In this document: positions 1,532-54,107 of the stretch, one piece after another
Position numbering within the stretch: position 1 is the first letter of the stretch
Layout: the number at the start of each line of letters is the position of its first letter
From: Dehalococcoidia bacterium
Lineage (GTDB): Bacteria > Chloroflexota > Dehalococcoidia > SZUA-161
Assembly: GCA_011174795.1 (NCBI GenBank)
Contig: DUEY01000004.1
Coordinates: 101 to 64,100, forward strand
Length of the DNA stretch: 64,000 nucleotides
Direction: 5' to 3'
Position numbers and translations under genes: made by a program
The notes under the pieces: model-generated
What the model was told of the DNA's origin: nothing
Seen by the model: the letters and a program-made list of their open reading frames with translations, nothing else
Databases searched by the model: none

Positions 1532-3973
1532 CTAGGATGCTTTGTTCTTATTCCCCGTCTTTTTCTGGGACTTCTTTTCTGCCTTCTCTTCTTCCTTCAT
1601 GAACTCCTTCATCCCCTTGGCAAGCTGCTCCAGTCGGTCCTGAACACGCCTGTTGATAGATTTCGCCTCGAACCTGCCGTCCTTCAATCGCTTTCCTGCC
1701 TTCATACCTGTCAGCAACTCTATACCCTCATCCACATTATGCACACTGTACATATTAAATTTACCTTCTCGTATTGATTCCACCACCTCCTCCTTCAGCA
1801 TCAGGTTCTGGACGTTACTCTCGGGGACTATCACCCCCTGCTCGCCGGTCAGCCCTCTGGACTTGCACAGCTCATAGAACCCCTCTATCTTCTGGTTCAC
1901 GCCACCGATCGCCTGCACTTCGCCCTTCTGGTTGATCGATCCAGTCACAGCGATGCCCTGCTTGATGGGAATGCCGGAGATAGCGGAGAGAAGCGCATAG
2001 AGCTCGGTGCTGGAGGCACTATCGCCTTCCACCTCCTCGTAGCTCTGCTCAAAGACAATGCGTGCGGCGAGGGAGAGGGGGATACTGCTGGCATAGCGTT
2101 CAGCTAAGAAACCGCTGAGGATGAGGACCCCCTTGGTATGGATAGGACCACCCAGCTTGGCTTCGCGCTCGATGTCTATCAGCCCCTCGCGGCCGGCGGC
2201 GACGCTGGCTGTTATACGGTTCGGTCTGCCGAAACTGAGGTCGCCCAGATTGACTATCGACAAGCTGTTTACCTGTCCTATGGCATCACCCCCGGTGTCT
2301 ATCTTGAGGAGCCCCCGCTCCATCATCTCCCTGAGGCGCTCCTGAACCAGATTTGAGCGATAATCCTTCTCCTCAATAGCCTTTGAGATGTGCTCACTCA
2401 GTATCAGTTTCTTATTATCTGTTCCCGCCCAGTAGTTAGCCTCCCTGATGATATCCGCTATTTCTGCGAATCTTGTAGAGAGCTTCTGCTGATCTTCAGC
2501 CAGCCTGGAGCTGTGATCGATGATTTTAGCCACGGCCATCTTGTCCAGATGACGGAGATTCTCCTTGCCGCAAACAGCACAGAGCGTGGCATTATACAGT
2601 CTCAAGGTGTCGTCATTAAGGTCCATCTGGCTGTCGAAATGCGCCTTGACCTTGAACAACTCGGGGAACTCGCGGTCGTACCTGTAGAGCAGGTAGTAGT
2701 ACAGGTTCTCGCCGATGAGGATGACCTTGATATTCAGGGGTATTGGCTCCGGCTGGATAGTCTTGAGAGTGAAGAAGCCGAACCGCTCCGCCAGCTCTTC
2801 GATAATAATTTTCTGCTCTCTGAGGGAGCGTTTCAGGCTCTCCCATGACATAATATTCTGCAGGATATCCTCCACCCTGATAACCAGATAGCCGCCGTTG
2901 GCCTTATGTAGAGAGCCGGAGCGAATCATGGTGAAGTCGCTGCTGATGGCGCCGAAGTGCGTTTCCTTCTCAAGCCGGCCTATGAGGTTATTGAACGTGG
3001 GGTTCATCTCTATGATTACGGGGGCGCCTTTGAGATGCGAGTTGTCAACGAGGACGTTCACCTCATATTTTTTAAAGGTCTGCGCTGCGGCCAGCTGGGC
3101 GAAGGGATTCCCCGACTCGGGCTCCGGTGGGGAGCGGAAAAAGTCCTTATCTTCGACAACGTTTTCCTGTACCGCTTTGAGGTATTCAATGGTGTCGGGG
3201 TTATCCCCGTATTTTTTAATCAGGTCTCCAATTGGCGCTTCCAGAACAAACTGGACAACCTCCTCGTCCGTCTTCTCGATTCGCTCTGAGGTTTCCCTGT
3301 CCCAGGCTTTTATCTGGGTCATAGCCTCTTTAAGCTCATCTTGAATATCCTCACGGCGCTTGTTGAGTTCCTCCTTTTTTTCCGGACTGAGGGCCAGCAT
3401 ATCCTGCTCGGAGAGGGGTTTTCCATCAACGATGGGGATAATCATTATGCCCATGGGCGACATCTGAATGGCGAAACCCTTTTCATGGGCCATCTGGTTC
3501 AGCTGGTTGAACAGCTTTTCCTTCCTTTCGTTGAAGGTGTGGACTATGGCGTCTCGCCGTTTGACGTAGTCGTCGCTTTCGAATGCCTTGCGGATATCTG
3601 TCTGGACCGTATCCACGAGTTTTTTCATGTCTTTTTGAAACCGGGCTCCCGTACCGGCCTTCAGCTTTAGAGATTTGGGCCGGTAGGAGTCCTGAAAGTT
3701 GTGAACATAGCACCAGTCCGGCGGCACATCCTTGTCCCGGGCTATGCGCTCCAGGAAGGCGACGATGGCTGTCATTTTCCCGGTGCCGGGCAGACCTGCG
3801 GCATAGATATTAAAACCGGAATGCTGTACGCCCAGGCCAAACTGAAGGGCATGGAGTGCCCGGTCCTGCCCGATTATGGTCGATACCGGCTCCAGGCTCT
3901 CCGTGCTCTCGAGTCCCAGATTATCCGGGTTGCAAACGCGTCTCACCTCTGCGGCCGTTAGCTTCCTGGGCAT
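1532..3973 (-). CDS. Lon-like ATP-dependent protease (AAA+ module with large helical insertion plus Lon S16 proteolytic domain; COG1067/LonC-like)
   Basis: Walker A is GLPGTGKMT. The C-terminal Lon protease domain reads GDSASSTELYALLSAISGIPIKQGIAVTGSINQKGEVQAIGGVNQKIEGF. A GGAGG RBS precedes the ATG. Confidence 0.85.
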   Translation of the reverse strand: MPRKLTAAEVRRVCNPDNLGLESTESLEPVSTIIGQDRALHALQFGLGVQHSGFNIYAAGLPGTGKMTAIVAFLERIARDKDVPPDWCYVHNFQDSYRPKSLKLKAGTGARFQKDMKKLVDTVQTDIRKAFESDDYVKRRDAIVHTFNERKEKLFNQLNQMAHEKGFAIQMSPMGIMIIPIVDGKPLSEQDMLALSPEKKEELNKRREDIQDELKEAMTQIKAWDRETSERIEKTDEEVVQFVLEAPIGDLIKKYGDNPDTIEYLKAVQENVVEDKDFFRSPPEPESGNPFAQLAAAQTFKKYEVNVLVDNSHLKGAPVIIEMNPTFNNLIGRLEKETHFGAISSDFTMIRSGSLHKANGGYLVIRVEDILQNIMSWESLKRSLREQKIIIEELAERFGFFTLKTIQPEPIPLNIKVILIGENLYYYLLYRYDREFPELFKVKAHFDSQMDLNDDTLRLYNATLCAVCGKENLRHLDKMAVAKIIDHSSRLAEDQQKLSTRFAEIADIIREANYWAGTDNKKLILSEHISKAIEEKDYRSNLVQERLREMMERGLLKIDTGGDAIGQVNSLSIVNLGDLSFGRPNRITASVAAGREGLIDIEREAKLGGPIHTKGVLILSGFLAERYASSIPLSLAARIVFEQSYEEVEGDSASSTELYALLSAISGIPIKQGIAVTGSINQKGEVQAIGGVNQKIEGFYELCKSRGLTGEQGVIVPESNVQNLMLKEEVVESIREGKFNMYSVHNVDEGIELLTGMKAGKRLKDGRFEAKSINRRVQDRLEQLAKGMKEFMKEEEKAEKKSQKKTGNKNKAS

Positions 3974-4196: not shown

Positions 4197-5096
4197 TTAC
4201 TTGTTGTGGTTGTCTATTCCAGCAGCCGCCAGGATATCGGGAACAACCTCTTCCCTGCCGATGGCCATAATGTGCACACCGTCGCAGATGGAATATTTCT
4301 TGAGCTCGGCGATCATGCGGCCGGCGATCTCAATACCTTTATTGAGCGCCTCTCCTTTGGGCGCCTCAGCCATTTCATCGATCAGGTGCTGGGGTACGAA
4401 GATGCCGGGCACGTTCTCGTTCATATATTTTGCCATCCTGGCCGACACCAGCAGGACTATCCCCGCCAAGATCTTCACGGGGTATTGACGGGCGTAATCC
4501 ATGAATTTGGCGAAGTTGTCCAGGTCGTAGATGGCCTGCGTTTGTATGAACTCGGCCCCGGCCTCGATTTTCTTCTCGAACTTGATCAGCTGGGGTTCGA
4601 TCGGGTTTGCCTCGGGGGTGACTATAGCCCCAGCGCAGAACTCGACAGAGCCATCGAGGTCGTTACCCCCCATGTCTTTGCCCGATTCCATTTGCCTTAT
4701 CGCTCTGAGCAGTTGAACCGAGTCGAGCTCGAAGACGCCTTTTGCCTCCTTGTGGTCTCCAACCGGGACGGCGTCTCCGGTAAGGCAGAGGACGTTCCGT
4801 ATGCCCCTTGTATATGCCAGGAGGAGTTCGGCTTGCAGTGCGAGCTGATTGCGGTCGCGGCAGGTCATCTGAAGTATGGGTTCGCCACCATGCTCCTTTA
4901 TCTCAAGACAGCCGCCGATTGAGGGAAAGCGCATCACCGAGCTCTGGTGATCGGTGACGTTTATCGCGTCCACCTTATCCTTGAGTATGTCGATATGGTG
5001 GCGCATATTCTCGATGTTCGTCCCTTTCGGCGGGCCGATCTCGCTGGTCACGACGAACTTGCCGGAGTTGAGGGCTTCCTTGAAACTCTGTGCCAT
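4197..5096 (-). CDS. metF: Methylenetetrahydrofolate reductase, small MetF type
   Basis: The start is placed at internal MAQSFKEALNSGKFVVTSEIGPPKG (aa 47 of the ORF) with a GGAGG RBS. This choice avoids overlap with the upstream gene. The sequence is MTHFR-like throughout (AINVTDHQSS, LQMTCRDRN, NVLCLTGD). Confidence 0.85.
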   Translation of the reverse strand: MAQSFKEALNSGKFVVTSEIGPPKGTNIENMRHHIDILKDKVDAINVTDHQSSVMRFPSIGGCLEIKEHGGEPILQMTCRDRNQLALQAELLLAYTRGIRNVLCLTGDAVPVGDHKEAKGVFELDSVQLLRAIRQMESGKDMGGNDLDGSVEFCAGAIVTPEANPIEPQLIKFEKKIEAGAEFIQTQAIYDLDNFAKFMDYARQYPVKILAGIVLLVSARMAKYMNENVPGIFVPQHLIDEMAEAPKGEALNKGIEIAGRMIAELKKYSICDGVHIMAIGREEVVPDILAAAGIDNHNK

Positions 5097-5110
5097 TCTA
5101 TCCCTCCTCC

Positions 5111-5755
5111 TCACGAAATAATGGTCACGCGCGGCCTGAGCACAATCTGAGAATTCTTGACAGGCTGGTACTTTCTCATCAAGTCGAGCCTGCCCTGCTC
5201 GTTGAGGCGCTGGTAGATGAGCGTCCAGGCGCAATCCTTCTCTTTATCGACTTCGCATTTGCCGTTATTGGTGCCGCCACAGGGCCCGTTGAGCAATCCC
5301 TTGTGGCATGCGGTGATAGGGCAGATGCCCGCGGTATAACCCAGGACGCAGTGCCCGCACTGGTCACATACCTCGTGGAAATAGCCCGGCCCGTCCTCTA
5401 CACCGATAAAGAGGGTGTCCAGAGCGGGGATGACCGGCTTGCTGATATAAGAACCGACCTTCTGTACACCCAGGGCGCAGGACATCACCAGAATGCAGTC
5501 CGCACTCTGAATGAAGCCGGTGTTTTCATTCAGGGATGCTTCTGTCATATCATCGCAGGCGGTGGGGATGACCGTCCAGCCGGTAACCATCTTCCCCATT
5601 TCCTGCAGGCGCTCCTTCATATCTAGGACCTCTTCTCTGCCGCCGGTCCTGGTCATGGTGGCGCATGTACCGCAGCCGATGATATATACCCTTTCCAGAC
5701 CCTCAAGTTGATGCTCGACCTCCTCGAGTGACTTCTGTCTGGTTATAGATTTCAT
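5111..5755 (-). CDS. metV: MetV-like Cys-rich subunit (MTHFR C-terminal-type domain)
   Basis: Cys-rich segment CDQCGHCVLGYTAGICPITACHKGLLNGPCGGTNNGKCEVDKEKDCAW carries the GPCGG hallmark. The gene lies immediately upstream of metF with a 14-nt gap. Confidence 0.75.
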   Translation of the reverse strand: MKSITRQKSLEEVEHQLEGLERVYIIGCGTCATMTRTGGREEVLDMKERLQEMGKMVTGWTVIPTACDDMTEASLNENTGFIQSADCILVMSCALGVQKVGSYISKPVIPALDTLFIGVEDGPGYFHEVCDQCGHCVLGYTAGICPITACHKGLLNGPCGGTNNGKCEVDKEKDCAWTLIYQRLNEQGRLDLMRKYQPVKNSQIVLRPRVTIIS

Positions 5756-5801
5756 GCTTCACCCCCACTGAAGGCTGACGGCTGACAACCGTACTCCTGC
5801 A

Positions 5802-8800
5802 TTAGGTCTCCAGGTCGCATCTCAGGCAGCGCTTGGCTTCCTGTCTCGCTACCTCCTCGGAGAAGCCCTGCTCGATCTCTTCGAAGGTGCGCTTCCTTTC
5901 CTGGACAGGAAGCTTAGGCATCTCCAGTCTTGGCTGGGCTTCCCATGTTTCCTCGACTTCCAGGCTCTGGATCTCTCCGTTGCCCCTTTTCTTGAGGTCG
6001 TACATTTCTACACGTGAAGTGTCCTCCTTGAGGTACTTGTCTATTGCGATAGCCGCTCTCCTCCCGGCAGCGATAGCTTCTACGACCATCCCCGGGCCGG
6101 TGACGAAGTCTCCCCCGGCGAAGATACCGGGGATATTTGTGCATAGCCTGTTGCTGTCGACGACCAACGTCTCCCACCTGGTACGCTCCAGGGCGCTATC
6201 GCTGGGCAGGAATGAAAGGTCTGGTGCCTGCCCCACGGCGGCGATAACAGTATCGGCCTCGACGAAGAACTCGGAGCCGGGGATAGGAACGGGGCGCCGC
6301 CTCCCGCTGGCATCTGGCTCGCCCAACGTCATGCGGATACACTGCAGGCCGGTCGCTCTCCAGTTACTGCTCTCTACCCTCGTGGGACTGACAAGGAAGT
6401 TGAACTGGATGTTCTCAGCAACTGCCTCGTCGTACTCTACCTCGGTTACCGGCATCTCGCCTCGCGACCGCCTGTAGTAGATATTTACCTCGTCGGCACC
6501 GAGACGGAGAGCGGTGCGGGCAGCGTCGAGCGCTACGTTTCCGCCCCCGATGACGGCCACCCTATTCCCGACTGCTACCTGTTTGCCCACCTTGACATCA
6601 CGCAGGAAGCGCAGCCCGTAGTGGAAGTTCTCTACGTCCTCCAGCTCGCCAGGGATGCCTATCCGCTGGCTTCGCTGAGCGCCGGCAGCGATGAAGACCG
6701 CGTCATAGCCATCTTTCTTGAGGTCTTCTACAGTGAAATTCACATTGATCGGCGTGTTGTATCGTATCTCGACGCCGCGCTTGGCGATATGGTCTATCTC
6801 ATTCTGAATAACCTCATTGGGCAGACGGAACTGGGGTATGGCTACCGAGAGCATGCCTCCTCCCACGGGGAGGGCTTCGAAAACCGTCACCGGATAGCCC
6901 GACTGAGCAAGGAAATAGGCACAGCTCAGGCCGGTGGGCCCTGCTCCGACGACAGCCACTCTCTGGTCATTGGTCTGGGGGAAGGGTTCCGGTGCCGGCA
7001 ATTCGTCAACGTGGTCAAAGTACCAATCGGCGGCGAAGCGTTTCAACTCCCTGATGGCCACCGGTTCATCGAGCTCGCCTCGGCGACAGCGCCCTTCGCA
7101 GGGATGATGGCAGATGCGGCCGCAGATGGCGGGGAAGGGATTTCGCTCCCTAATAGTCTCGACAGCCTCCAGGTATTCACCGGCGGCGATGTGTGCCACG
7201 TACTTGGGTACGTTGATCCCCACGGGACACGTATGCTGGCAGGGGGATATCATTAAGGCATCGCAGACTGCAGCGGGGCATTTCTTCTCCTTAATGTGAG
7301 CCTCGAACTCATCGCGAAAGTACTTGATAGTGGTGAGCACCGGATTGGGGCAGGTCTGGCCCAGGCCGCAGAGCGAGCATTCCTTGACGGTGTAGGCTAT
7401 GTTCTCCAGTATATTGATGTCCTCATCACGCCCCTTGCCCTGGGTTATCCTGGTCAGTATCTCCAGCATCTGCTTGGTTCCCAGACGGCAGGGGACACAT
7501 TTCCCACATGACTCGGTCTGAGTAAAACTAAGGAAATACCTGGCTATCTCTACCATGCAGGTGCTCTCGTCCATTACCACCATGCCGCCTGAGCCCATAA
7601 TCGATCCGAGTTGAGCGAGGGAATCGTACTCCACAGGGAAATCGAGAAACTGAACCGGGATGCATCCACCAGAGGGACCGCCAGTCTGTACCGCTTTAAA
7701 CTGCTTGCCCCGGGGAATGCCGCCTCCGATATCGAAAATAATGGAGTCTAGGGAGGTGCCCATAGGGACTTCGACTAATCCACTATTGGCGATCTTGCCA
7801 GTGAGGGCGAATACTGCCGTTCCCTTGCTTTTCTCGGTACCGATGCTGGCGAACCATTCGGCTCCGCGGTCGATGATAACCGGTACTGTGACAAGCGTCT
7901 TCACATTGTTAATAATGGTAGGCTTTCCATTCAAACCCGATTGAGCGGGGAAGGGAGGGCGGGGACGGGGCATTCCCCGCCGGCTTTCTATGGAAGCTAT
8001 TAAGGCTGTCTCTTCGCCGCAGACAAAGGCTCCAGAACCCTCTTTGACATGTACTGAAAAGTCGAAGCCCGAACCAAATATGTTCTTTCCCAGGAATCCC
8101 CTTCCCTGTGCTTGTTCCAGAGCGATGCGAAATCTTTTCACTGCTAATGGATATTCGGCACGAACATAGATATAGCCCTCGGTAGCACCTATAGCGTATC
8201 CGGCGATGGACAGCCCTTCAATGACAGCATGGGGGTCAGCCTCAAGGATGGAGCGATCCATGAAAGCTCCGGGGTCGCCCTCGTCGGCATTGCAGATTAC
8301 GTATTTCTGCTCGCCAATGGCATTGCGGCAGAGTTGCCACTTGCGCGCTGCGGGAAATCCGGCGCCGCCCCTGCCTCGAAGGCCGGACTTGGCGATCTCT
8401 TCGATGACTTCTTCAGGTGTCATCTTAAGGAGAGCTCTCTCTACTGCCTGGTAACCGCCGCGGGCGATATAGTCATCGATTTTCTCGGGATTAATGTGTC
8501 CGCAATTTCGAAGGACGATACGCTGCTGTCCACTGTAGAATTTTATATCTGAATAGAGGGGTATGGCTTGTCCGGTTACAGGGTCGCGGTAGAAGAGACG
8601 CTCGACCGGCTTACCATCGCAAAGATGGGAACTGACAATCTCGGAGGCATCCTCAGCCTCGACGTGGGTATAAAAGATACCATCGGGCTCAATTACCACA
8701 TTAGGGCCCTGCTCGCAAAAGCCGTGACAGCCGGTGAAGTCCACTGTAACATCTGCCATACCCTGCCGCGCCACCTCAGCCTGGAGCGCATCGTAAACTT

Positions 8801-8864
8801 CACCGGATCTCGCTGAAAAGCAGCCTGTTCCCTGACAAACAAAGACAGTATGATGGCTTTGCAT
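5802..8864 (-). CDS. Fusion flavoprotein: N-terminal thioredoxin-like [2Fe-2S] domain, NuoF/HydB-like NADH-FMN-[4Fe-4S] module, and GltD/NfnB-like FAD/NAD(P)H module
   Basis: NuoF motifs are GRGGAGFPAARKW, GEETALIASIE and ESCGKCVPCRLG. The GltD-like part has Cys clusters (CQHTCPVG, CGRICHHPCEGRCRRG) and two Rossmann motifs (VAVVGAGPTGLSCA, VAVIGGGNVALDAA). Confidence 0.85.
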   Translation of the reverse strand: MQSHHTVFVCQGTGCFSARSGEVYDALQAEVARQGMADVTVDFTGCHGFCEQGPNVVIEPDGIFYTHVEAEDASEIVSSHLCDGKPVERLFYRDPVTGQAIPLYSDIKFYSGQQRIVLRNCGHINPEKIDDYIARGGYQAVERALLKMTPEEVIEEIAKSGLRGRGGAGFPAARKWQLCRNAIGEQKYVICNADEGDPGAFMDRSILEADPHAVIEGLSIAGYAIGATEGYIYVRAEYPLAVKRFRIALEQAQGRGFLGKNIFGSGFDFSVHVKEGSGAFVCGEETALIASIESRRGMPRPRPPFPAQSGLNGKPTIINNVKTLVTVPVIIDRGAEWFASIGTEKSKGTAVFALTGKIANSGLVEVPMGTSLDSIIFDIGGGIPRGKQFKAVQTGGPSGGCIPVQFLDFPVEYDSLAQLGSIMGSGGMVVMDESTCMVEIARYFLSFTQTESCGKCVPCRLGTKQMLEILTRITQGKGRDEDINILENIAYTVKECSLCGLGQTCPNPVLTTIKYFRDEFEAHIKEKKCPAAVCDALMISPCQHTCPVGINVPKYVAHIAAGEYLEAVETIRERNPFPAICGRICHHPCEGRCRRGELDEPVAIRELKRFAADWYFDHVDELPAPEPFPQTNDQRVAVVGAGPTGLSCAYFLAQSGYPVTVFEALPVGGGMLSVAIPQFRLPNEVIQNEIDHIAKRGVEIRYNTPINVNFTVEDLKKDGYDAVFIAAGAQRSQRIGIPGELEDVENFHYGLRFLRDVKVGKQVAVGNRVAVIGGGNVALDAARTALRLGADEVNIYYRRSRGEMPVTEVEYDEAVAENIQFNFLVSPTRVESSNWRATGLQCIRMTLGEPDASGRRRPVPIPGSEFFVEADTVIAAVGQAPDLSFLPSDSALERTRWETLVVDSNRLCTNIPGIFAGGDFVTGPGMVVEAIAAGRRAAIAIDKYLKEDTSRVEMYDLKKRGNGEIQSLEVEETWEAQPRLEMPKLPVQERKRTFEEIEQGFSEEVARQEAKRCLRCDLET

Positions 8865-8865
8865 G

Positions 8866-9354
8866 CTATCCGCTGCCCTTTTTGTCCTCGAAGAGTTGAG
8901 CTACCTTCTTAGGATTCATGTTGCCATGGGTATCCTTTCCGATAACGATATTGGGTGCCAGGGCACAAACGCCTATACAGGCGACGGTCTCCAGTGTGTA
9001 CTCTAAGTCGGGGCTGGTCTGGCCTTCTTCGAGGCCAAGATGCTGCTTCACTAATTTTAATATAGTCTTCCCACCACGTACGTGGCACGCTGTGCCCCGA
9101 CACACCCTGACAACCCTTTTCCCTCGGGGCGTGGTATAGAGCTGTTCATAGAAAGTGATTACCCCCTGTACCTCTGACGGGAATAGCGCGAACGCTCGGG
9201 CTATGGGATTGATAGCCTCGGGAGGAATGTATCCGATCTCATCCTGAATCTCCTGAAGGAGAGGGATGAGGGGCCAACTCTGCTCACGGTAGCTATCTAT
9301 GATCTCAGCTACCCGCGTCATGTCGGGTTTGACTGTTTCTGGAGTCTTATCCAT
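8866..9354 (-). CDS. NuoE/HydC-like thioredoxin-fold [2Fe-2S] ferredoxin
   Basis: Motifs VRVCRGTACHVRGG ... ETVACIGVCALAPN. The gene overlaps the upstream stop by 8 nt and ends 1 nt before the next start. Confidence 0.85.
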   Translation of the reverse strand: MDKTPETVKPDMTRVAEIIDSYREQSWPLIPLLQEIQDEIGYIPPEAINPIARAFALFPSEVQGVITFYEQLYTTPRGKRVVRVCRGTACHVRGGKTILKLVKQHLGLEEGQTSPDLEYTLETVACIGVCALAPNIVIGKDTHGNMNPKKVAQLFEDKKGSG

Positions 9355-12037
9355 GGGGCTCAGCCCTTTCTAGCTTCACCGCACATGCTTTTAGCGCCGG
9401 GGTTTTAGTCCGGGGGTCGAGGGTGATGCCGAATAGCTGGTTGACAGGGGTTGAGGGGAACGAAAGGGGCATGAATAGCATTCCCTCAGGCATCGTATCG
9501 GTGATTTTGGCTACAGCGTTTACCTCACCTATGGGTGAGATGACCTTAACCGATTCACCGTCACTGATTCCGACCTGCCCGGCATCCGATTCTCCGATTT
9601 CCACATAGGCCTCCGGCGAAAATGCTCTCAGCCTAGGGGACCTGGAGCTTCTAGAGCCGGTACCTGAATGGTAGAGTATGCTCCCCACGAGCAGGGTGAG
9701 AGGATACCCATCTTTGGGCATCTCCGCCGGCGGCTCATAGTGTACCGGGGAGAAGCGACCGAATCCGCTTGGAAATTGACCTTTGTACAGGCGCCTCTTT
9801 TTCAAAGGGTCTCTGTCCAGTTCCGCTCGATGTATATCCTTTGTCTGAGAATCTCTGTAGTCTGTAATCTGATAAAGGGAAACCATCTCCTGAATCTCGT
9901 CCATAACTTCCTGGAGGGAGGAATACGGCATCGGGTTACCCATACTGCTGGCCATCCGGTTAATTATCTCCCAGTCTGGCAGGCTGTCGCCGAGCGGTTC
10001 GATAACCTTATGTAGCTGCTGAACCCTCCCTTCGAAATTGGTAAAAGTGCCTTCCTTTTCGGCGAAGCTGGCAGCAGGGAGAACCACGTTTGCCAGTTTC
10101 GCCGTTTCGGTGAGGAACATATCGCTTACTACAAGGAAATCGAGGGATTCCAGCGCCTGCTTAACGAGAGAAGGGCTGGGGAAGCTCAATACCGGATTCT
10201 CTCCCACAATGCATATGCCCTTGACATTTCCATCTTTGGCCTGTTCCATCACCTCGAGGGCTGTCAGTCCGGGATTAACGGGCAAGTCGGTGCCCCAGCG
10301 GTCTGCGAACCTCTTTCTTTCCGCGTCATTATCCACGCTCTGGTAACCGGGTAGCAAATCGGGCGTGGTACCCATATCACATGCACCCTGTCCATTGCAG
10401 TACCTCTGCATCGCAAAGATGCCGCCCGTGATACCGATATTGCCGGTCAGCATCGCCAGATTGGCAAGTGCCATGACGCTGTCCGTCCCTGTTACATGCT
10501 GGGTGATTCCGTTGCCATAGACGATTGAAGCGAGGGTTGCTTCAGCAAAAAGCCGGGCAGCGCGACAAACATCTTCGCCGGGTACGCCGGTAACCTTTTC
10601 TACGTACTTAGGAGTATATTTCTTTAAATCTTTGGTCAGCGCCTCGAAGTTATCCGTTTTCCTGGTTACGAACTCATCATCCAGCAGGCCCTCATTGATA
10701 ATGAATCGCGCCATGCCATTTATCAGCGCCACATCTGTTCCTATCCTGGGTCGCAGCCAGAGGTGGGCAAATGATGCGAGCCTTGTTTGTTGAGGGTCGA
10801 CCAGCAGTAGCTTGGCACCTTTATATCTGGCTGCTCGCTTGACGGCATATCCCACGATAGGGGCTGAGGCGGGTAGGTTAGCGCCGATAACCAGTATCAC
10901 CTCTGACTGCTCGAGGGCATCGAGGCAGTTGGTGCTGCCGGCGAAGCCTACAGCTGCCCCCAGGCCTGCGATGCTTGCTGCACTGTACAGACGGCTGCTG
11001 TTGTCGATATTGTTGGTGCCCAGTACACAACGGGCCAGCCTCTGCAACAGGTAGTTCTCCTCGTTCGTGCACCGGGAGGAGCCGAGGACAGCCAGGCTGT
11101 TGGAGCCGTGAGCTTTCTTTATACGATTTAGTTCGGAGGACATGTGGTCTAGAGCCTGTTCCCAGGACACTGCCTCGAAATCGCCGTTCACCCTCATCAG
11201 GGGGCTTGTCAGTCTCTCCGGGCTGTGCACGAAATCGTAGCCATAGCTTCCCCTGACGCAGAGTGTGCCATGATTAACGGTACTCTCTTTGCCCGGTCTG
11301 GCACGCACTATCCGGTTATCCCTGACACCGAGATTGATACTGCATCCACAGCCGCAGAACGGACAGATGGTTGACACATTGGTCGGGGTTGTGCCCCGGT
11401 ATACCGGCTGCTTCTCCATGAGTGCGCCCGTGGGGCAAATTGCCACACAGGTGCCACAGAAGGTACACTCCGAATTCTCCAGCGGCATGTCATTGAGAGT
11501 TGCTGGCTTTGAGGCAAATCCCCGGTTGATATAGTCGATAGCGCCCTCGACGACCATCTCCTGGTCTGCCCGTATGCACTTGGCGCATAGAATGCACTTG
11601 CTTAAATCCCTTTCAATGAACGGGTTGACCTCTTCGATAGTGGCTGGCTGGGGAATCCGCTGCATGTCTATCACCCCGATCCCGATATCCGAGGCGATCT
11701 TGCGCAGTTCGCAGGTATTTCCCTTGTCGCACACCAGGCAGCTATCGGGATGGCTCGACAGCATGAGCTTGATTATAGTAGTGCGGCGTTCCTGTACCTT
11801 GGGTGATTCCGTGTTGATCACCATTCCCGCTTCTATAGGAGTGACGCAGGACGCCGAAAGCCTGCCTGAGCGTTCGTCTTCAACAAGACAGATACGACAG
11901 GCGCCAATCGGTGCCAGACAGGGGTCATGGCAGAGCGTGGGTATGTCGACGCCTGATTCCCGTGCCAGTTCCAGCACGGTCATGCCGGTATGGCCGCTGA
12001 CCTCTCTGCCGTTAAGCGTAATAGTGATTGCTTCCAA
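9347..12037 (-). CDS. FdhA/FdsA/NuoG-like molybdopterin-oxidoreductase-fold subunit with N-terminal [2Fe-2S] and [4Fe-4S] domains; the canonical formate dehydrogenase active-site residues appear substituted
   Basis: TTG start. N-terminal motifs are CHDPCLAPIGACRIC, HPDSCLVCDKGNTC, CILCAKCIRA and CTFCGTCVAICP. The MopB cluster is CPFCGCGCSI...GTLCVRG, and QGACDMG is conserved. See the findings for the Tyr at the Sec/Cys position. Confidence 0.8.
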   Translation of the reverse strand: MEAITITLNGREVSGHTGMTVLELARESGVDIPTLCHDPCLAPIGACRICLVEDERSGRLSASCVTPIEAGMVINTESPKVQERRTTIIKLMLSSHPDSCLVCDKGNTCELRKIASDIGIGVIDMQRIPQPATIEEVNPFIERDLSKCILCAKCIRADQEMVVEGAIDYINRGFASKPATLNDMPLENSECTFCGTCVAICPTGALMEKQPVYRGTTPTNVSTICPFCGCGCSINLGVRDNRIVRARPGKESTVNHGTLCVRGSYGYDFVHSPERLTSPLMRVNGDFEAVSWEQALDHMSSELNRIKKAHGSNSLAVLGSSRCTNEENYLLQRLARCVLGTNNIDNSSRLYSAASIAGLGAAVGFAGSTNCLDALEQSEVILVIGANLPASAPIVGYAVKRAARYKGAKLLLVDPQQTRLASFAHLWLRPRIGTDVALINGMARFIINEGLLDDEFVTRKTDNFEALTKDLKKYTPKYVEKVTGVPGEDVCRAARLFAEATLASIVYGNGITQHVTGTDSVMALANLAMLTGNIGITGGIFAMQRYCNGQGACDMGTTPDLLPGYQSVDNDAERKRFADRWGTDLPVNPGLTALEVMEQAKDGNVKGICIVGENPVLSFPSPSLVKQALESLDFLVVSDMFLTETAKLANVVLPAASFAEKEGTFTNFEGRVQQLHKVIEPLGDSLPDWEIINRMASSMGNPMPYSSLQEVMDEIQEMVSLYQITDYRDSQTKDIHRAELDRDPLKKRRLYKGQFPSGFGRFSPVHYEPPAEMPKDGYPLTLLVGSILYHSGTGSRSSRSPRLRAFSPEAYVEIGESDAGQVGISDGESVKVISPIGEVNAVAKITDTMPEGMLFMPLSFPSTPVNQLFGITLDPRTKTPALKACAVKLERAEPHG

Positions 12038-12107
12038 TGGCAGCCTCTATTAAACCCAGGGAATAGGGCTAGCTGTATGGCCCGAAACGCAACATAGGGA
12101 ATTAAGC

Positions 12108-12917
12108 TCAGCCAGAAGCTGGAGTAGGTCTTTCCAGACGCTTTCCTACGTAATGTACAGCCCTTATAGCATTCACCAGCTGTGAGCTGGCAGCCCGCTT
12201 GGGGATGAATCCATAAGCTCCCAGCTTCTCGGCGGCAAGTATGTTCTCCTCATCGTCATACTGAGATAACATCACAACTCTGGTTTTCGGATATTTTTTA
12301 TATATCTGCTTGGTCGCCTCCAGCCCGTTCATTTCCGGCATAACTATGTCCATTATCACAATATCCGGTGATAGCTCGCCCACCTTGTCCACTGACTCTT
12401 TCCCGTTCTCAGCTTGACCGACAACCTCGATGTCACTCTGCAATTCCAGCACTGACCTGATACCATCCCTGACTACCGAGTGGTCATCCACTATAAGCAC
12501 TCTTATGCGCTTAGTAGCCTTATCCAGAATGCTCTGGGCCCTCGAGGCCAGCGCACCTGGCTCTATTGGCTTGGCCACATAGTCCTCGGCCTCCATCAGC
12601 GCCGCTTCATCTCGCCTCCACCCTTTGACAAGTTGCTTTTCCGGTGGTGCATCCATGACGATGATGGGTAAATCCTTGGTCTTGGGATCCTCTCTCAGCC
12701 ACTGGTGCATTGCGAAGGCTTCCCCACGGGGACTCAGTGTACCCAGGATTACCAGGTCCGGGTTAATCGTCTTCATCATTTCCTGGGCTTCTTGCTTGGT
12801 GGAGGCTGTTACGACCTCACACACGTCGCTCTCCAGAGCGCCTTTCAAAGTCGAAGCAAACTCAGGTTCGTCATCGATAATCAGGATCTCTTTCTTCTCT
12901 TCTTGCTTTTCTCCCAT
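12108..12917 (-). CDS. Tandem-receiver protein (REC-REC, no output domain)
   Basis: REC1 is ILIIDDEP...PDLVILGTLSP...YVAKP, with Gly where the phospho-acceptor Asp is expected. REC2 is VLIVDDHSVVRDG...DIVIMDIVMPEMNG...VVMLSQ...GFIPK and looks canonical. A GGAGGTGG RBS is present. Confidence 0.85.
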   Translation of the reverse strand: MGEKQEEKKEILIIDDEPEFASTLKGALESDVCEVVTASTKQEAQEMMKTINPDLVILGTLSPRGEAFAMHQWLREDPKTKDLPIIVMDAPPEKQLVKGWRRDEAALMEAEDYVAKPIEPGALASRAQSILDKATKRIRVLIVDDHSVVRDGIRSVLELQSDIEVVGQAENGKESVDKVGELSPDIVIMDIVMPEMNGLEATKQIYKKYPKTRVVMLSQYDDEENILAAEKLGAYGFIPKRAASSQLVNAIRAVHYVGKRLERPTPASG

Positions 12918-13059: not shown

Positions 13060-13095
13060 AAACGGAGGGCGAACCTCGGGGTTCGCCCTCCGTTT
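13060..13095 (-). terminator. Stem-loop downstream of the response-regulator gene
   Basis: aaacggagggcgaacc-tcgg-ggttcgccctccgttt gives a 16-bp perfect stem, 20 nt past the stop at 13116. The U-tract is weak. Confidence 0.5.
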
Positions 13096-13115: not shown

Positions 13116-13769
13116 TCACATGCCTATGATTCCCCGCCGTATGGCATACTTAACCAGTTCTATTGTACTGTGAACACCCAGCTTTTTCATGAGACTGGTT
13201 CTGTGCCCCTCGACCGTTTTTGAGGTTATGGATAATGTCTCCGCTATCTCTCGCGTCTTGTATCCTTCGGCAATTAATTTCAGCACGTCTCGCTCTCTAT
13301 CGGTCAACTGTTCATAAGGATCGGTCTTATCCTGCGTGAGCGCCAGTTGCTGGTAGTCTTCCACAAAAAGCTTTGCTATGGAAGGTGACAGATAGGATTC
13401 CCCTGCAAACACCGCCCGGATGCCGGACATAAGCTCGGAAGAGGCTGCCGTTTTGCTGACGAATCCATTGGCTCCGGCCTGGATAGCGGGGAAAACGTGT
13501 TCTTTATCGTCATACTGGGTAAGAACCAGGATCTTTATCTCAGGGAACTCCTTATGTATACGGCGTATAGCTTCCAAACCATTCATAACAGGCATGGCCA
13601 TATCCGTAAGTACGACATCTGGCAGTAGTTTGCCCGTCTTTTCCAGTGCTTCCCTTCCGTCAGCTGCCTCGCCCGCTACCTCTATATCTCCAGCGAGGGC
13701 AAGCAGTGTACAGATGCCGTCTCTAACGACGGTGTGGTCATCTACTATCAGTACCCTTATCTTCAGCAC
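13116..13769 (-). CDS. NarL/FixJ-family response regulator (REC plus LuxR-type HTH)
   Basis: VLIVDDHTVVRDG, DVVLTDMAMPVMNG and a C-terminal LTDRERDVLKLIAEGYKTREIAETLSITSKTVEGHRTSLMKKL. Confidence 0.9.
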   Translation of the reverse strand: MLKIRVLIVDDHTVVRDGICTLLALAGDIEVAGEAADGREALEKTGKLLPDVVLTDMAMPVMNGLEAIRRIHKEFPEIKILVLTQYDDKEHVFPAIQAGANGFVSKTAASSELMSGIRAVFAGESYLSPSIAKLFVEDYQQLALTQDKTDPYEQLTDRERDVLKLIAEGYKTREIAETLSITSKTVEGHRTSLMKKLGVHSTIELVKYAIRRGIIGM

Positions 13770-15060
13770 GCTCTTTACCCCAAAACACCGGCACTTTCAC
13801 TGTGATCTTGGTGCCCTTCCCGGGTTGTGACTGGATATCGCACGTGCCGCCGAGAAGGTTCGCCCTTTCTTTCATACTGAACAGTCCCCGCCCGCGGCCG
13901 CTTTCATCCACCTCAATCGGTCTTGATGCATCAAACCCTATACCGTCGTCCTCGATTTGCATTATGAACTCGTCCGAATCGCACTTCACATTTATTGTTG
14001 CGTTTTTAGCCTTTGAGTGCCAGGCTATATTTGCGATTGACCCCTGGGCGATGCGGTAGAGTGCGAATTCGACTTCTGAAGGTAAGCGTTCCTCCAGACC
14101 TTCGTAGTTCAAGGATAGATTGATGCCTGCTGGCTGAAGACGACTCTCGGCGTATTGGCGGATTGCGGGACCCAGCCCGAGGCTATCCAGAGCAGTCGGC
14201 CGGAGCGACTTCATTATTTTACTTATCTCAGAGCCGAGCTGAAGGGTGATATCATGGGCTTTACCGAGCTTTTCTTTGAACGCGGCATCGCCGAAGTTAG
14301 AGGCGTTAGCGACGTTCAGAAGTGCCTGCATGGTGAGTGAAAGACCGGTCAGCGACTGGCTGGTTTCATCGTGAAGTTCGCGGGCAACCCTGCCCCGCTC
14401 CATTTCCTGAGCAATCAACATGTAACGGGCAAGAAATCGGTAGTTCTCCCGTTCCTTTCTCAGTTGGTCATAGAGCTCCGCCTGCTCAATAGCAACACCT
14501 ACTTGGTCGCCGATTGCGTGCAGCAGATGCATATCGTCTTTGGTAAAATGGCGGGGCGAATGGCTGGCAACGTTTAGTACGCCCAGCACCGTGTCTTTGG
14601 CACGGAGTGGGACACTGATGAACGCCTTGAGGCCTTCTGTGCTTATCAGGTCGCGCCAGGCAGCGCGGGGGTCTGCGGAGATGTCTTCGAGAAGCACGGA
14701 CTTGCCGGTTTGAGCTACCCTTCCCGCAATCCCTTCACCTATGCCAAGGTGCATCTCCTCGGCATATTTATCGGACAGACCACGATAGACCCGGTAGGAG
14801 AGCGTCTGGGTTTGTTCGTCTATAAGCAGGATTCCTCCCACAGCTCCGTTCATAATCTCAAGAACGGTATCGAGAGCGACATTAAGGACGGCGTCGAGGT
14901 CCCACAGACCGCTGACTGCGGCCGAGACTCTGCTTAAGGCTAGAAGCTCGCCGTACGGCTTTTGTAGACTGCTTTCAGAGGCTTCTTCGTTTAACTGTAG
15001 GCTATCCTTCTCAGGGGTGGACTCGATATCCCCATCGCTTTCTGGTTCCATCCTCATCAT
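13738..15060 (-). CDS. GAF-domain sensor histidine kinase (HisKA_3 plus HATPase_c)
   Basis: H-box ARELHDETSQSL. The ATPase region reads DDGIGFD...GRGRGLFSMKERANLLGGTCDIQSQPGKGT, and a GAF-like region lies upstream. The start is ambiguous (ATG at 15105, 15060, 15057 or 15051). The ORF-track extension to 15501 overlaps the thiolase gene and is rejected. The gene overlaps the regulator start by 32 nt. Confidence 0.75.
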   Translation of the reverse strand: MMRMEPESDGDIESTPEKDSLQLNEEASESSLQKPYGELLALSRVSAAVSGLWDLDAVLNVALDTVLEIMNGAVGGILLIDEQTQTLSYRVYRGLSDKYAEEMHLGIGEGIAGRVAQTGKSVLLEDISADPRAAWRDLISTEGLKAFISVPLRAKDTVLGVLNVASHSPRHFTKDDMHLLHAIGDQVGVAIEQAELYDQLRKERENYRFLARYMLIAQEMERGRVARELHDETSQSLTGLSLTMQALLNVANASNFGDAAFKEKLGKAHDITLQLGSEISKIMKSLRPTALDSLGLGPAIRQYAESRLQPAGINLSLNYEGLEERLPSEVEFALYRIAQGSIANIAWHSKAKNATINVKCDSDEFIMQIEDDGIGFDASRPIEVDESGRGRGLFSMKERANLLGGTCDIQSQPGKGTKITVKVPVFWGKERAEDKGTDSR

Positions 15061-15218
15061 CTTTATCTCAGTGAATGCGATAAGCGTAAACGAAGCGCTC
15101 GTCATTGTCAACTTGTGCCCGCAAAATCTGCGCTGCGTTACTTTGGAGCAGGTAAAAAGAATCTGCCCAAGGAAACCCTTGGGCAGATTCTTTATTATAT
15201 GCCTTAGCCGCTCTGATT

Positions 15219-16397
15219 CTAGAGGCCGATGATGAGCACGCTGACGGTATTGCTTACGGGAATGCCACCCAGGTTGTGGGTCAGGCCCAGTTTCGGGTTT
15301 TTTATCTGCCGCTCGGCAGCTCTCCCCTGACACTGAAGGTACACCTCGTACAGCATCCGCAGACCGCTGGCGCCGATGGGGTGGCCGAATGATTTCAGGC
15401 CGCCATCGGGCTGCACCGGCAGGCCTCCATCCAGGTTGAAGAAACCCGACTCTATATCCGCCTTCACCTTGCCCCTCGGGCTGAACTCGAGGTCCTCGCA
15501 CGTAACGGCCTCGGTGATGCTGAAGCAGTCGTGAAGCTCGGCCATACTTATCTCTTCGCGGGGCTTGGTAATCCCGGCTTCGGTATAGGCAGCCTTCCCT
15601 GCTTCAACGGTTGCCCTCACCTGGGTGAAGTCGTAATCGGCTCTCAGTTCGCCCTCGCTGGGGCACACGGAAATCTGCAGCGCCTTGACATAAACAGGGT
15701 CGGGCCTGAACTCCTTTGCCCGGTCGGCGGGGACGACGATAGCCGCTGCTGCTCCATCGCTCACGCCGCAGCAATCGAAGAGGCCCAGGGGCCAGGCGAC
15801 TATTGGAGCGTTCATCACTTGCTCTATGGTTACCTCCCTGCGCAGGTGAGCCTTGGGGTTCAAAGTGCCGTTGTGATGGCTCTTCACCGAGACCGTCCCT
15901 ATCATCCTTTTACCTTCCTCGGGGCTCAAGCCATATACGGAGAAGTATGTGGTAGCCATCAAAGCAAACATCCCGGGCGCTGTTCGGTCAGGGTACCTGT
16001 TGCTGGGCAGGCTCTGCTGGTCGGGAAGCCCGCTGTATCCCGAATCCTTCAGCTTCTCGAAGCCGACGGCAAGGCATATATCGTAGGCTCCGGCTGCTAC
16101 AGCGTAGCAGGCGTTTCTGAAAGCATCCGAACCCGAGGCGCAGGCGTTCTCCACCCTGGTCACCGGTATATACTGAAGCTTCAGAGGGTCGGCGAGGCAG
16201 CGTCCGTCAAAGCCCGATACCCAGGTGCCGCCCCAGGCCGCCTCGATATCTTTGGGCTCTATCTTTGCGTCTTCGACAGCCTCTTTAGTCGCTTCGAATA
16301 TCAGGTCGTTCTTGCTCGCATCCCAGCGCTCGCCGAACTTCGTGCATCCCATGCCTATGATGGCAACTTTATCTCTAATGCCTTTGACGCTTCCCAT
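15219..16397 (-). CDS. SCP-x / archaeal / PhlC-type thiolase-like protein (copy 1)
   Basis: DKVAIIGMGCTKFGE, nucleophile motif VENACASGS, ELHDCFSITE, GHPIGASGLRM. An AAGGAGG RBS is present. Confidence 0.85.
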   Translation of the reverse strand: MGSVKGIRDKVAIIGMGCTKFGERWDASKNDLIFEATKEAVEDAKIEPKDIEAAWGGTWVSGFDGRCLADPLKLQYIPVTRVENACASGSDAFRNACYAVAAGAYDICLAVGFEKLKDSGYSGLPDQQSLPSNRYPDRTAPGMFALMATTYFSVYGLSPEEGKRMIGTVSVKSHHNGTLNPKAHLRREVTIEQVMNAPIVAWPLGLFDCCGVSDGAAAAIVVPADRAKEFRPDPVYVKALQISVCPSEGELRADYDFTQVRATVEAGKAAYTEAGITKPREEISMAELHDCFSITEAVTCEDLEFSPRGKVKADIESGFFNLDGGLPVQPDGGLKSFGHPIGASGLRMLYEVYLQCQGRAAERQIKNPKLGLTHNLGGIPVSNTVSVLIIGL

Positions 16398-53089: not shown

Positions 53090-53099
53090 GGAGAGGTAA

Positions 53100-54107
53100 A
53101 TGATAGTAGGACTTTCTTATGACCTTAAGGAGGATGTGAGCCTCGGGACAGGATGGCCTGATGATGCCCTCGAAGAATACGACTCAAAAGAGACCGTGGA
53201 GGCCATAGCACACGCGCTTGAGGTACAGGGACACTCAGTGGTCTTTCTAGGTGGGGGAAGGGAGTTCCTGACCAGTATCCAGCGCCAGCGTGTTGACTTC
53301 GTGTTCAATATCGCGGAAGGGCTGGGAAACCGGAGGAGCAGGGAGGCCCAGGTTCCATCGGTACTTGAGATGCTGGACATACCATATTCAGGTTCGGACC
53401 CTCAGTGCCTGGCGATATGCCTTGACAAACCGCTGACCAAAAAACTTGTGGCGACAGCAGGTGTGGCCACACCGCGCTGGCGGGTATTCACCGACGTCGC
53501 TCAACTCAAAGAAGAGAACTGGGATGGGTTTCCTTTCCCTGTGTTTGTGAAACCAAGCCACGAGGGCTCCAGCAAGGGCATACGCTACCGTTGCCAGGCG
53601 CAGAACGTCAGGCAGACAATCGAACTGGCGGCGGAGTTACTCTCAAGCTACCAGCAGCCTGTAATGGTGGAGGAGTATATCAATGGCGACGAAATAACAG
53701 TTGGAATACTAGGCAACTCCCCACCCAGAATACTGGGCGTGATGCGTATTCTACCGCGTGACAGGGGGACTGACTTCATATATTCACTTGAGGTGAAGCG
53801 GGGTTGGGAAAATCTGGTCGAGTACGAGTGCCCCGCCAGGCTCAATCCCGGCGTCCTCAAGAAAATCGTCAAATCCAGCATGAGCGCCTTCAAGGTTCTG
53901 GGCTGTCGTGACATCGTCAGGATTGACTTCAGAGTGTCTTCCAGCGGGGTTCCCTATTTCTTGGAGATAAACCCGCTTCCCGGACTCAGTCCATACAATA
54001 GTGACGTGCCAATCATAGCCAGCAAGTCGGGCTGGACATACGATGACTTGATAGCAGCCATAATGGATACCGCTTTGCAGAGGTACACCAGTTGCATCTT
54101 ACAATAG
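53100..54107 (+). CDS. ATP-grasp ligase, D-alanine--D-alanine-ligase-like (1)
   Basis: CLDKPLTKKL, FPVFVKPSHEGSSKGI, MVEEYINGDEITVGILG, RIDFRV...YFLEINPLPGL. Confidence 0.8.
   Translation: MIVGLSYDLKEDVSLGTGWPDDALEEYDSKETVEAIAHALEVQGHSVVFLGGGREFLTSIQRQRVDFVFNIAEGLGNRRSREAQVPSVLEMLDIPYSGSDPQCLAICLDKPLTKKLVATAGVATPRWRVFTDVAQLKEENWDGFPFPVFVKPSHEGSSKGIRYRCQAQNVRQTIELAAELLSSYQQPVMVEEYINGDEITVGILGNSPPRILGVMRILPRDRGTDFIYSLEVKRGWENLVEYECPARLNPGVLKKIVKSSMSAFKVLGCRDIVRIDFRVSSSGVPYFLEINPLPGLSPYNSDVPIIASKSGWTYDDLIAAIMDTALQRYTSCILQ

Follow-up and report, generated by a model that had tools for sequence, protein, structure and literature searches.

A MetVF methylene-tetrahydrofolate reductase linked to a Bfu/Nfn-type redox module with a formate dehydrogenase-like subunit in Dehalococcoidia and Desulfobacterota

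Within contig DUEY01000004.1 of a Dehalococcoidia bacterium (Chloroflexota; GenBank assembly GCA_011174795.1) we analyzed a stretch of 64,000 nucleotides (positions 101 to 64,100; hereafter the window, whose own numbering is used throughout) and examined a compact cluster of six minus-strand genes (4197-12917) that ends with those for MetV and MetF, the two subunits of a MetFV-type methylene-tetrahydrofolate (THF) reductase. In the direction of transcription the cluster codes for a tandem-receiver protein, a subunit resembling the formate dehydrogenase (FDH) alpha chain (FdhA-like), a NuoE-like protein, a fusion of NuoF- and GltD-like proteins (NuoF::GltD), MetV and MetF (Table 1), of which the last five constitute the core system described here. 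The listing of open reading frames (ORFs) and Pfam searches recovered all six genes on the strand, at the positions and with the domains that a sequence-only reading of this stretch had assigned to them, and the spacings it reported likewise held: 70 nt between the receiver and fdhA-like genes, an 8-nt overlap between fdhA-like and nuoE, and gaps of 1 nt (nuoE to fusion), 46 nt (fusion to metV) and 14 nt (metV to metF). Comparison with related loci points to a dedicated electron-transfer partnership between MetVF and a redox module of the bifurcating Bfu family formed by the FdhA-like, NuoE and NuoF::GltD proteins.

Table 1. Coordinates of the cluster, of its flanking features and of informative relatives (window numbering, except for the loci prefixed with L)
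Feature	Coordinates	Strand	Basis
MetF, catalytic flavoprotein subunit of methylene-THF reductase	4197..5096	-	Pfam MTHFR (PF02219) 2e-42
MetV, Fe-S subunit of MetFV-type methylene-THF reductase	5111..5755	-	Pfam PF12225 1e-35
NuoF::GltD fusion, 1020 residues	5802..8864	-	Complex1_51K + NADH_4Fe-4S + Fer4_20 + Pyr_redox_2
GltD/NfnB-like half of fusion	5802..7250	-	Pfam Fer4_20 + Pyr_redox_2, PDB matches, invariant columns
NuoF/HydB/BfuB half of fusion	7251..8864	-	Pfam, motifs, PDB matches
NuoE/HydC/BfuC-like [2Fe-2S] subunit	8866..9354	-	Pfam 2Fe-2S_thioredx 8e-46; motif C-x4-C...C-x3-C
FdhA-like/BfuA-type subunit, 896 residues, TTG start	9347..12037	-	Pfam
Tyr351-Ser352 codons, in place of the FDH Sec/Cys-His pair	10982..10987	-	Alignment with YjgC and genuine FDHs
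Tandem-receiver protein with two REC domains and without an output domain	12108..12917	-	Pfam Response_reg x2
Probable intrinsic terminator	13060..13095	-	16-bp hairpin then U-tract UUUAUCGUU
LuxR-type response regulator	13116-13769	-	Pfam
GAF histidine kinase	13738-15501	-	Pfam
Minimal variant of the module with MetVF	L141 6446-11559; L140 4922-8852		Pfam
Two methylene-THF reductase sets of L035	10-4930 and 6761-14687		

Examination of the NuoF half of the fusion revealed an N-terminal thioredoxin-like [2Fe-2S] domain with all four cysteines in place, signatures for FMN and NAD(H) (GLRGRGGAGFP; GSGAFVCGEETALIASIES) as well as the [4Fe-4S] motif ESCGKCVPCR, and its best matches in the PDB are NiFe-HydB (7t2r_B, 1.5e-236), HydB (7q4v_B), NfnB (9bov_B) and StnB (8oh5_B). 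The GltD half combines a domain for two [4Fe-4S] clusters with a GxGxxG motif for FAD and an NADPH-type site (GGGNVALD...YYRRS), whose underlying pattern, GxGxxA...YRRS, is typical of the NADPH-binding members of the family; this half best matches the GltD domain of NfnA and StnC (9bov_A, 2e-122; 9n5u_A; 8oh5_C) and NfnI (5jca_L). Hence the resemblance of the NuoE, NuoF and GltD combination to the Stn/Nfn enzymes, proposed in the sequence-only reading, is borne out by the closest solved structures, namely the bifurcating HydB, StnB and NfnB and the GltD domain of NfnA/StnC. Together with its neighbors the fusion displays the complete Bfu core, comprising a BfuB with an FMN/NAD(H) site and a [4Fe-4S] cluster, a [2Fe-2S] BfuC and a BfuA with NuoG-type N-terminal clusters, while GltD takes the place of the C-terminal domain of BfuB. 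The fusion ends in a short RCLRCD motif (window 5802-5822) that is invariant in 13 of 13 diverse fusions aligned, and that can be aligned with two sites, the canonical [4Fe-4S] motif at the N-terminus of GltD-type proteins and the junction between GltD and NuoG in NfnA and StnC; this alignment hints at the descent of the fusion from an NfnA-like ancestor, and the two cysteines may be contributed to a cluster shared with another subunit. Proteins sharing >=80% identity with the fusion make up over 120 database clusters, all the named ones being from metagenome-assembled genomes of Chloroflexota/Dehalococcoidia and labeled as 'NuoF', 'hydrogenase' or 'FAD-dependent oxidoreductase'.

The FdhA-like protein carries the full series of domains of the FdsA-type alpha subunit (Fer2_4, NADH-G, Fer4_Nqo3, Molybdop_Fe4S4, Molybdopterin and Molydop_binding in Pfam), and its best PDB matches are the Bacillus subtilis YjgC (7.5e-176) and FdsA-type FDHs (~1e-170), as against only ~1e-85 for StnC/NfnA. 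Its N-terminal region specifies a [2Fe-2S] cluster, a His-ligated [4Fe-4S] cluster, two further [4Fe-4S] clusters and the FS0 [4Fe-4S] cluster, with all motifs intact save for an aspartate in lieu of the fourth cysteine of the first ferredoxin-type motif (CILCAKCIRAD, residues 148-157; window ~11566-11595). This aspartate is shared by 104 of the 118 close homologues and by the Desulfobacterota loci L012 and L035, in contrast to the cysteine of genuine FDHs; the corresponding cluster may be Asp-ligated or of the [3Fe-4S] type. The molybdopterin domain is complete and retains the fold with ~40% identity to those of FDHs; nevertheless, the residues that support catalysis in FDHs have been lost. 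The FDH motif CAR[VL][U/C]H, which supplies the catalytic selenocysteine (Sec) or cysteine and the histidine, reads SRLYSAAS in the window, and RGQNNVQG reads MQRYCNGQG, with the catalytic arginine gone. The former ligand position is occupied by Y in 97, C in 5, H in 3 and F in 1 of 106 close homologues and by S or L in the Desulfobacterota proteins linked to MetVF; the residue that follows it in the close homologues is never histidine, and the arginine motif is absent from every MetVF-linked member in both phyla. By contrast, the genuine FDHs encoded beside fusions without MetVF retain Sec/Cys (HCARL[C/U]H), His and Arg, and two of them display an in-frame TGA for selenocysteine.

The conservation profile of these proteins is also inverted relative to that of genuine FDHs. 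Pairs of the latter are 57-69% identical in the molybdopterin domain versus 43-64% in the Fe-S N-terminus, whereas the MetVF-linked protein of the window is 60, 44 and 37% identical to that of L035, and 47, 30 and 23% identical to that of L008, in the Fe-S part, molybdopterin domain and C-terminal cap respectively. The lost catalytic residues, the inverted conservation and the absence of the molybdopterin domain from a minimal variant described below together show that strong constraint acts on the chain of clusters alone. We therefore predict that the FdhA-like subunit is a catalytically dead, fossil FDH, in agreement with the suggestion of the sequence-only reading that it is an Fe-S scaffold and not a formate dehydrogenase. 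An alternative in which FdhA, NuoE and NuoF::GltD constitute an NAD(P)+-dependent FDH co-transcribed with MetVF, thus uniting two steps of the methyl branch, could draw on the NCBI and JGI label of the homologues ('formate dehydrogenase subunit alpha'), on the FDHs being the closest solved structures and on the presence of genuine FDHs beside the same fusion in four other loci (L016, L020, L026 and L027). We rejected this identity on account of the substituted catalytic positions (Tyr, or elsewhere C, H, F, S or L, for Sec/Cys; Ser for His; no Arg motif) and the inverted conservation, and with the minimal variant free of any molybdopterin domain we regard it as highly implausible.

To obtain the gene contexts of the fusion we scanned one genome per GTDB species with an alignment of diverse full-length fusions, which yielded 80 loci from many phyla, and took a census of their neighboring genes by tblastn. 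The order FdhA-like-NuoE-fusion-MetV-MetF is identical in all 15 close relatives fetched, 11 of them from Dehalococcoidia (L001-L007, L009 and L084-L086) and four from Desulfobacterota (L008, L010, L012 and L035), even as the flanks vary, indicating that the arrangement is not due to chance; for L012 and L009, which are long-read assemblies with frameshifts, the unambiguous parts alone were used. In the contexts of five close homologues the genes are likewise separated by short gaps or overlap, and the flanking genes are unrelated save for a recurrent set of GAF kinase, LuxR-type regulator and receiver. All fusions at least 58% identical to that of the window (L004-L010, L012 and L035, from Dehalococcoidia, Desulfomonilaceae, Desulfarculales and 'Deltaproteobacteria') have MetV-MetF downstream, with NuoE and an FdhA-like gene of full length upstream, while MetVF was never found beside the ~40 full-length fusions of 46-55% identity. 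Consistent with this, the MetVF-linked fusions form a single clade in 100 of 100 neighbor-joining bootstraps, with Dehalococcoidia and Desulfobacterota branches, and the other partners, namely NiFe hydrogenase, genuine FDH and GltB-like proteins, each map to fusion clades of their own. The module and MetVF have co-diversified and their linkage is strict in two phyla. The modular pattern of partners fits the published descriptions of the Bfu family (PMC9304861). One locus, L051, was considered as an ancestral FdhA-NuoE-fusion arrangement and rejected, as it contains two separate NuoE-NuoF sets with a Sec-FDH and no fusion.

The census also brought to light other contexts of the fusion. In L011 (991-6424) and L041 (9923-15384) NuoE and the fusion are followed by a 225-240-residue, Fe-S-only NuoG-like protein and then by a GltB-like protein of ~530 residues with the glutamate-synthase FMN domain (PF01645), an arrangement that recurs in L014, L017, L023, L036, L038-L047, L072 and L074 across Zixibacteria, Bacteroidota, Verrucomicrobiota, Acidobacteriota, Gemmatimonadota and other phyla; these loci could code for an undescribed NuoEF-linked enzyme resembling glutamate synthase. 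The Dehalococcoidia locus L019 (9373-17010; also L025 and L037) combines the fusion with a NuoG-like protein bearing a degenerate molybdopterin domain and a NiFe-hydrogenase large subunit, and looks like a NiFe-Bfu-type hydrogenase with an additional NADPH module.

The linkage was also examined from the side of MetV, whose gene lies directly upstream of metF, as is the case for MetFV-type enzymes, and whose cysteine columns are invariant in our alignment; no homologue of it was found in the PDB. A metagenome scan with a MetV alignment provided the best 80 relatives (55-82% identical), 70 of which have at least 400 nt of upstream sequence. Directly upstream on the same strand lies a NuoF::GltD fusion in 57 of the 70, and a plain NuoF in 11, the remaining 2 being arranged otherwise, such that a NuoF-family gene adjoins MetV in 68 of 70 loci, and the co-occurrence for which the sequence-only reading had proposed a search is thereby upheld. 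The loci with a plain NuoF represent a minimal variant, confirmed by Pfam searches on L141 and L140 and also observed in L127, L135, L146, L147, L159, L160, L162, L165 and L117, that encodes a 223-228-residue Fe-S-only NuoG piece, NuoE, a NuoF of 396-399 residues, MetV and MetF. It contains no molybdopterin domain, no GltD and no second substrate site; hence, the only plausible job of this minimal module would be electron exchange with MetVF. The nuoF and metV genes of L141 are separated by an inserted gene for a YhgA-like transposase.

A further line of evidence is furnished by L035 (Desulfarculales bacterium UBA702), where a set of HdrA-like, MvhD, MetV and MetF genes is situated ~1.8 kb upstream of a set of FdhA-like, NuoE, fusion, MetV and MetF genes. 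The two MetV paralogues are respectively 34% and 58% identical to that of the window, indicating that each redox module has its own MetVF pair. More generally, the window MetV is 53-58% identical to Desulfobacterota versions behind the same module versus 33-34% to Hdr-linked versions. MetF is 71-88% identical among all MetVF-linked loci, even across phyla, and the window copies of MetV and MetF are respectively 53-60% and 71-78% identical to those of Desulfarculales and Desulfomonilaceae behind the same module. Some Desulfobacterota-type loci have an additional, divergent MetF-like gene just upstream of the FdhA-like gene (L008, 3758-4777, matching PF02219 at 1.5e-17; L150, 2498-3337).

An association of this kind had been noticed before, contrary to the novelty that the sequence-only reading had implied for the partnership of MetVF with NuoEF and a NuoG-like protein. 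In Dethiosulfatarculus sandiegensis, NuoEFG homologues were reported upstream of metFV as an unstudied 'X type', whose MetFV falls in a separate group III of the tree and for which a bifurcating function was speculated (Yi et al. 2021, PMC8515935). The window agrees with the X type in having NuoE, NuoF and NuoG homologues encoded immediately ahead of metFV in the same orientation, and in the phyla concerned (Chloroflexi and Desulfobacterota); in a comparison that did not include the D. sandiegensis sequence, its MetV and MetF clustered with the Desulfarculales and Desulfomonilaceae copies behind the same module. The one paragraph devoted to this type (PMC8515935) differs in mentioning neither the GltD fusion nor the full-length FDH fossil nor the minimal variant. 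The MetVF-linked arrangement is not mentioned in the survey of the Bfu family (PMC9304861), and no experimental study or characterized complex with this set of subunits was found in the searchable literature. What is new here is the GltD fusion and its Nfn/Stn kinship, the dead FDH subunit, the long and minimal variants and the linkage quantified from both sides.

Given the clade-specific partners, the MetV-side linkage, the minimal variant and the duplicated MetVF of L035, a dedicated electron-transfer partnership of the module with MetVF is the best-supported interpretation of these comparisons. The five genes would accordingly form one functional unit, an 'X-type' MetFV reductase with a Bfu-family (HydABC/NfnABC-like) redox partner, and it is fairly probable from their gene context that the five proteins associate in a stable complex. 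In such a unit MetF is predicted from gene content to interconvert methylene-THF (CH2-THF) and methyl-THF (CH3-THF), that is, to catalyze with MetV the reduction of the former or oxidation of the latter, and MetV would act as an Fe-S adaptor. NuoE and the NuoF half would provide the FMN/[4Fe-4S]/[2Fe-2S] site for NAD(H) that is the bifurcation center in the solved Bfu enzymes, the GltD half would contribute an FAD/NADP(H) site, and the fossil FDH would have been retained as an Fe-S wire and scaffold, its FDH domain possibly serving as the docking surface for MetV. The published potentials (CH2-/CH3-THF ~-200 mV, NAD(P)H -320 mV and ferredoxin -400 to -500 mV) imply that a Bfu-type center could split the electrons of NAD(P)H between CH2-THF and ferredoxin, or run in reverse. 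Most likely, the CH2-/CH3-THF pair would be coupled to NAD(P)H/NAD(P)+ jointly with ferredoxin. In the reductive direction bifurcation would follow 2 NAD(P)H + Fd_ox + CH2-THF -> 2 NAD(P)+ + Fd_red + CH3-THF (Fd, ferredoxin); in the oxidative direction methyl-THF and reduced ferredoxin would jointly reduce NAD(P)+ by confurcation. We infer the involvement of ferredoxin, the stoichiometry and the direction, and the complete picture, in which a single bifurcating or confurcating MetVF-Bfu/Nfn complex has sites for NAD(H), NADP(H) and ferredoxin and a fossil FDH domain docking MetV, is put forward tentatively, as a possibility that falls somewhat short of probable. Directly downstream of metF, the locus L001 (14917-19516) codes for a small ferredoxin, an activator of corrinoid proteins of the RACo type, a B12-binding protein and UroD-type and pterin-binding methyltransferases. 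A demethylase-like system of this kind would supply MetVF with methyl-THF and is, as a single locus, a weak hint of the oxidative direction.

The closest known systems bear directly on this proposal. The Stn/NfnABC enzymes (Sporomusa ovata StnABC; C. saccharolyticus and T. sibiricus NfnABC) share with the module the complete inventory of domains, the degenerate molybdopterin domain included (PMC7483475; PMC11829005; PMC12018979), supply, for each half of the fusion, its nearest match of known structure and, in Sporomusa, are encoded next to metVF. They differ in that their GltD is N-terminal on the NuoG-like StnC/NfnA rather than C-terminal on the NuoF-like protein, and in that here the NuoG-like subunit has retained a [2Fe-2S] domain of its own and is much nearer to FdsA-type FDHs than to StnC or NfnA. 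A further difference is the strict linkage to MetVF, which argues for a function added to that of a stand-alone Stn/Nfn-type transhydrogenase. The main rival to the proposed complex is nonetheless that the operon encodes two enzymes without stable contact, a rearranged Stn/NfnABC-type transhydrogenase, which interconverts NADPH, NADH and ferredoxin and supplies or removes reduced ferredoxin, and a free, ferredoxin-dependent MetFV of the 2S type.

Several points weigh against the single complex, the first three of them on the side of this rival. Between them, the redox proteins possess all the domains found in an NfnABC transhydrogenase, and the three could function on their own. The stnABC genes of Sporomusa (L064) adjoin metVF, yet purification of Stn gave a heterotrimer that lacked MetVF (PMC7483475), and adjacency by itself is therefore no proof of a complex. 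The C. ljungdahlii MetFV alone uses reduced ferredoxin in vitro (PMC8515935). Moreover, the C-terminal domain of BfuB is involved in ferredoxin binding in NfnABC (PMC11829005, PMC12018979), and its replacement by GltD renders ferredoxin binding uncertain. The cofactor set as such does not separate bifurcating from non-bifurcating Bfu relatives, and the case for the complex is built on the comparison of genes and sequences. Against two separate enzymes, in the other clades the fused core never occurs without an additional catalytic module, which makes GltD the constant part rather than 'the' substrate module; the minimal variant, lacking GltD and the molybdopterin domain, cannot be a transhydrogenase and still lies directly upstream of MetVF; L035 maintains a dedicated second MetVF pair behind the module; and the MetV-side linkage holds in 68 of 70 loci. 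On balance, we consider the two-enzyme arrangement unlikely, if still a serious contender.

The RnfC-like subunit of the A. woodii enzyme is an NADH-oxidizing member of the NuoF family, and this 3S-type enzyme (MetF-MetV-RnfC2) is NADH-dependent and reported to be non-bifurcating. As in the system described here, a MetFV is combined with an extra flavin/Fe-S subunit that delivers electrons from NADH; the difference lies in its single RnfC-like partner, with no NuoE, NuoG/FdhA-like protein or GltD, as opposed to a three-gene module. The A. woodii MetFV thus provides a precedent for a reductase that works with an added subunit (PMC8515935), and with the replacement of the ferredoxin-binding domain of BfuB it lends some weight to a non-bifurcating NAD(P)H:methylene-THF oxidoreductase, in which the module would feed electrons from NADH or NADPH to MetVF with no role for ferredoxin. 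We regard this as improbable, since the presence of NuoE, an additional [2Fe-2S] domain at the N-terminus and a long chain of clusters is typical of bifurcating Bfu enzymes, the best PDB matches are the bifurcating HydB, StnB and NfnB, a simple NADH enzyme needs neither two nucleotide sites nor ~ten clusters, and in the oxidative direction the reduction of NAD(P)+ by CH3-THF is endergonic.

The remaining relatives help to delimit the system. The HdrABC-MvhD-MetFV (6S) of Moorella thermoacetica resembles it in joining MetFV to a module of a known bifurcating family, with bifurcation proposed and the second acceptor unproven, and differs in that the module is of the Hdr/Mvh and not the Bfu/Nfn type; Pfam and ORF scans found no hdrA, hdrB, hdrC or mvhD in the window, and the relatives have a separate neighboring set in L035 only. 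The FdsABG-type/Fdh-Bfu formate dehydrogenases share the fold of the alpha subunit, the order of Fe-S domains and the NuoE- and NuoF-like partners; they differ in the catalytic residues, which are lost here, and in the relaxed constraint on the molybdopterin domain.

With regard to expression, the sequence-only reading had noted the operon-like packing and the lack of a hairpin in the 70-nt gap, and both observations stand: the 70-nt and 46-nt gaps show no excess of folding stability over shuffled sequence (z +1.4 and +0.4), and a consensus scan recovered no terminator-like site on the minus strand inside the cluster, all matches being on the wrong strand. Directly after the LuxR-type regulator gene and upstream of the receiver gene there is, by contrast, a hairpin (-42.4 kcal/mol, z -6.25; 0 of 200 shuffles fold equally well) that is the probable transcript boundary between the kinase and LuxR regulator genes and the receiver gene with the cluster. 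As this hairpin parts the two groups and no terminator is present within the cluster, the transcription unit likely comprises the six genes from the tandem receiver to metF. Searches with Rfam at gathering thresholds and for tRNAs gave no match across the whole window, so that no THF, cobalamin or SAM riboswitch precedes the cluster.

The tandem receiver is probably both the first gene of this unit and its dedicated regulator: homologues are encoded upstream of the FdhA-like gene in L001, L004-L006, L084 and L085, and 1 nt downstream of metF in L002, L003 and L007. Likewise, the GAF kinase/LuxR regulator pair adjoins the cluster in nearly all Dehalococcoidia loci (L001, L002, L004-L007, L084 and L085), and this two-component system probably regulates it. 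Downstream of metF, in the same orientation and after 223 nt, lies a gene for a LonC-type, Lon-like protease (window 1532-3973, minus strand); it recurs only in L012 (14849-18538), is absent from the other loci and was taken as a probable coincidence rather than a member of the cluster.

In line with the sequence-only reading, no other gene of the Wood-Ljungdahl pathway was found in a scan of 39 of the larger ORFs in the window. The rest of the window codes for enzymes of the beta-oxidation type, an ABC transporter, PolA, DnaN and the like. The region 15219-47594 is a large gene set of the fatty-acid or aromatic side-chain beta-oxidation type, with several thiolases paired with OB-fold/DUF35-like proteins, an acyl-CoA dehydrogenase, two AMP-dependent ligases, a fusion of 3-hydroxyacyl-CoA dehydrogenase and enoyl-CoA hydratase and an acetoacetate-decarboxylase-like protein. 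Those thiolase/OB-fold genes that lie nearest to the cluster also occur in the closest relative, L084. On the plus strand, 51773-55096 encodes a lysine-2,3-aminomutase-like radical-SAM protein followed by two ATP-grasp proteins of the D-Ala-D-Ala-ligase type.

How the methylene-/methyl-THF step (-200 mV) is coupled to electron carriers is a long-standing question of Wood-Ljungdahl bioenergetics: the second acceptor of the Hdr-linked Moorella enzyme is unproven, a free MetFV working with ferredoxin appears to waste energy and, in the oxidative direction, it is confurcation that would make the oxidation of methyl-THF feasible. The module described here is abundant in environmental Dehalococcoidia and Desulfobacterota and belongs to the one bifurcating family, Bfu, for which structures have recently revealed the mechanism, which makes it a concrete and testable candidate for such coupling. 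The labeling of its scaffold subunit as 'formate dehydrogenase alpha' also means that metabolic reconstructions of uncultured lineages are likely to over-count formate dehydrogenases. If the five proteins were to form a single bifurcating complex, they would provide direct evidence for energetic coupling at the methylene-THF reductase step. Operating in reverse, which would suit complete-oxidizing Desulfobacterota and methyl-group-oxidizing Dehalococcoidia, such a complex would explain what drives the oxidation of methyl-THF in those members of the two groups that have a reversed folate branch.

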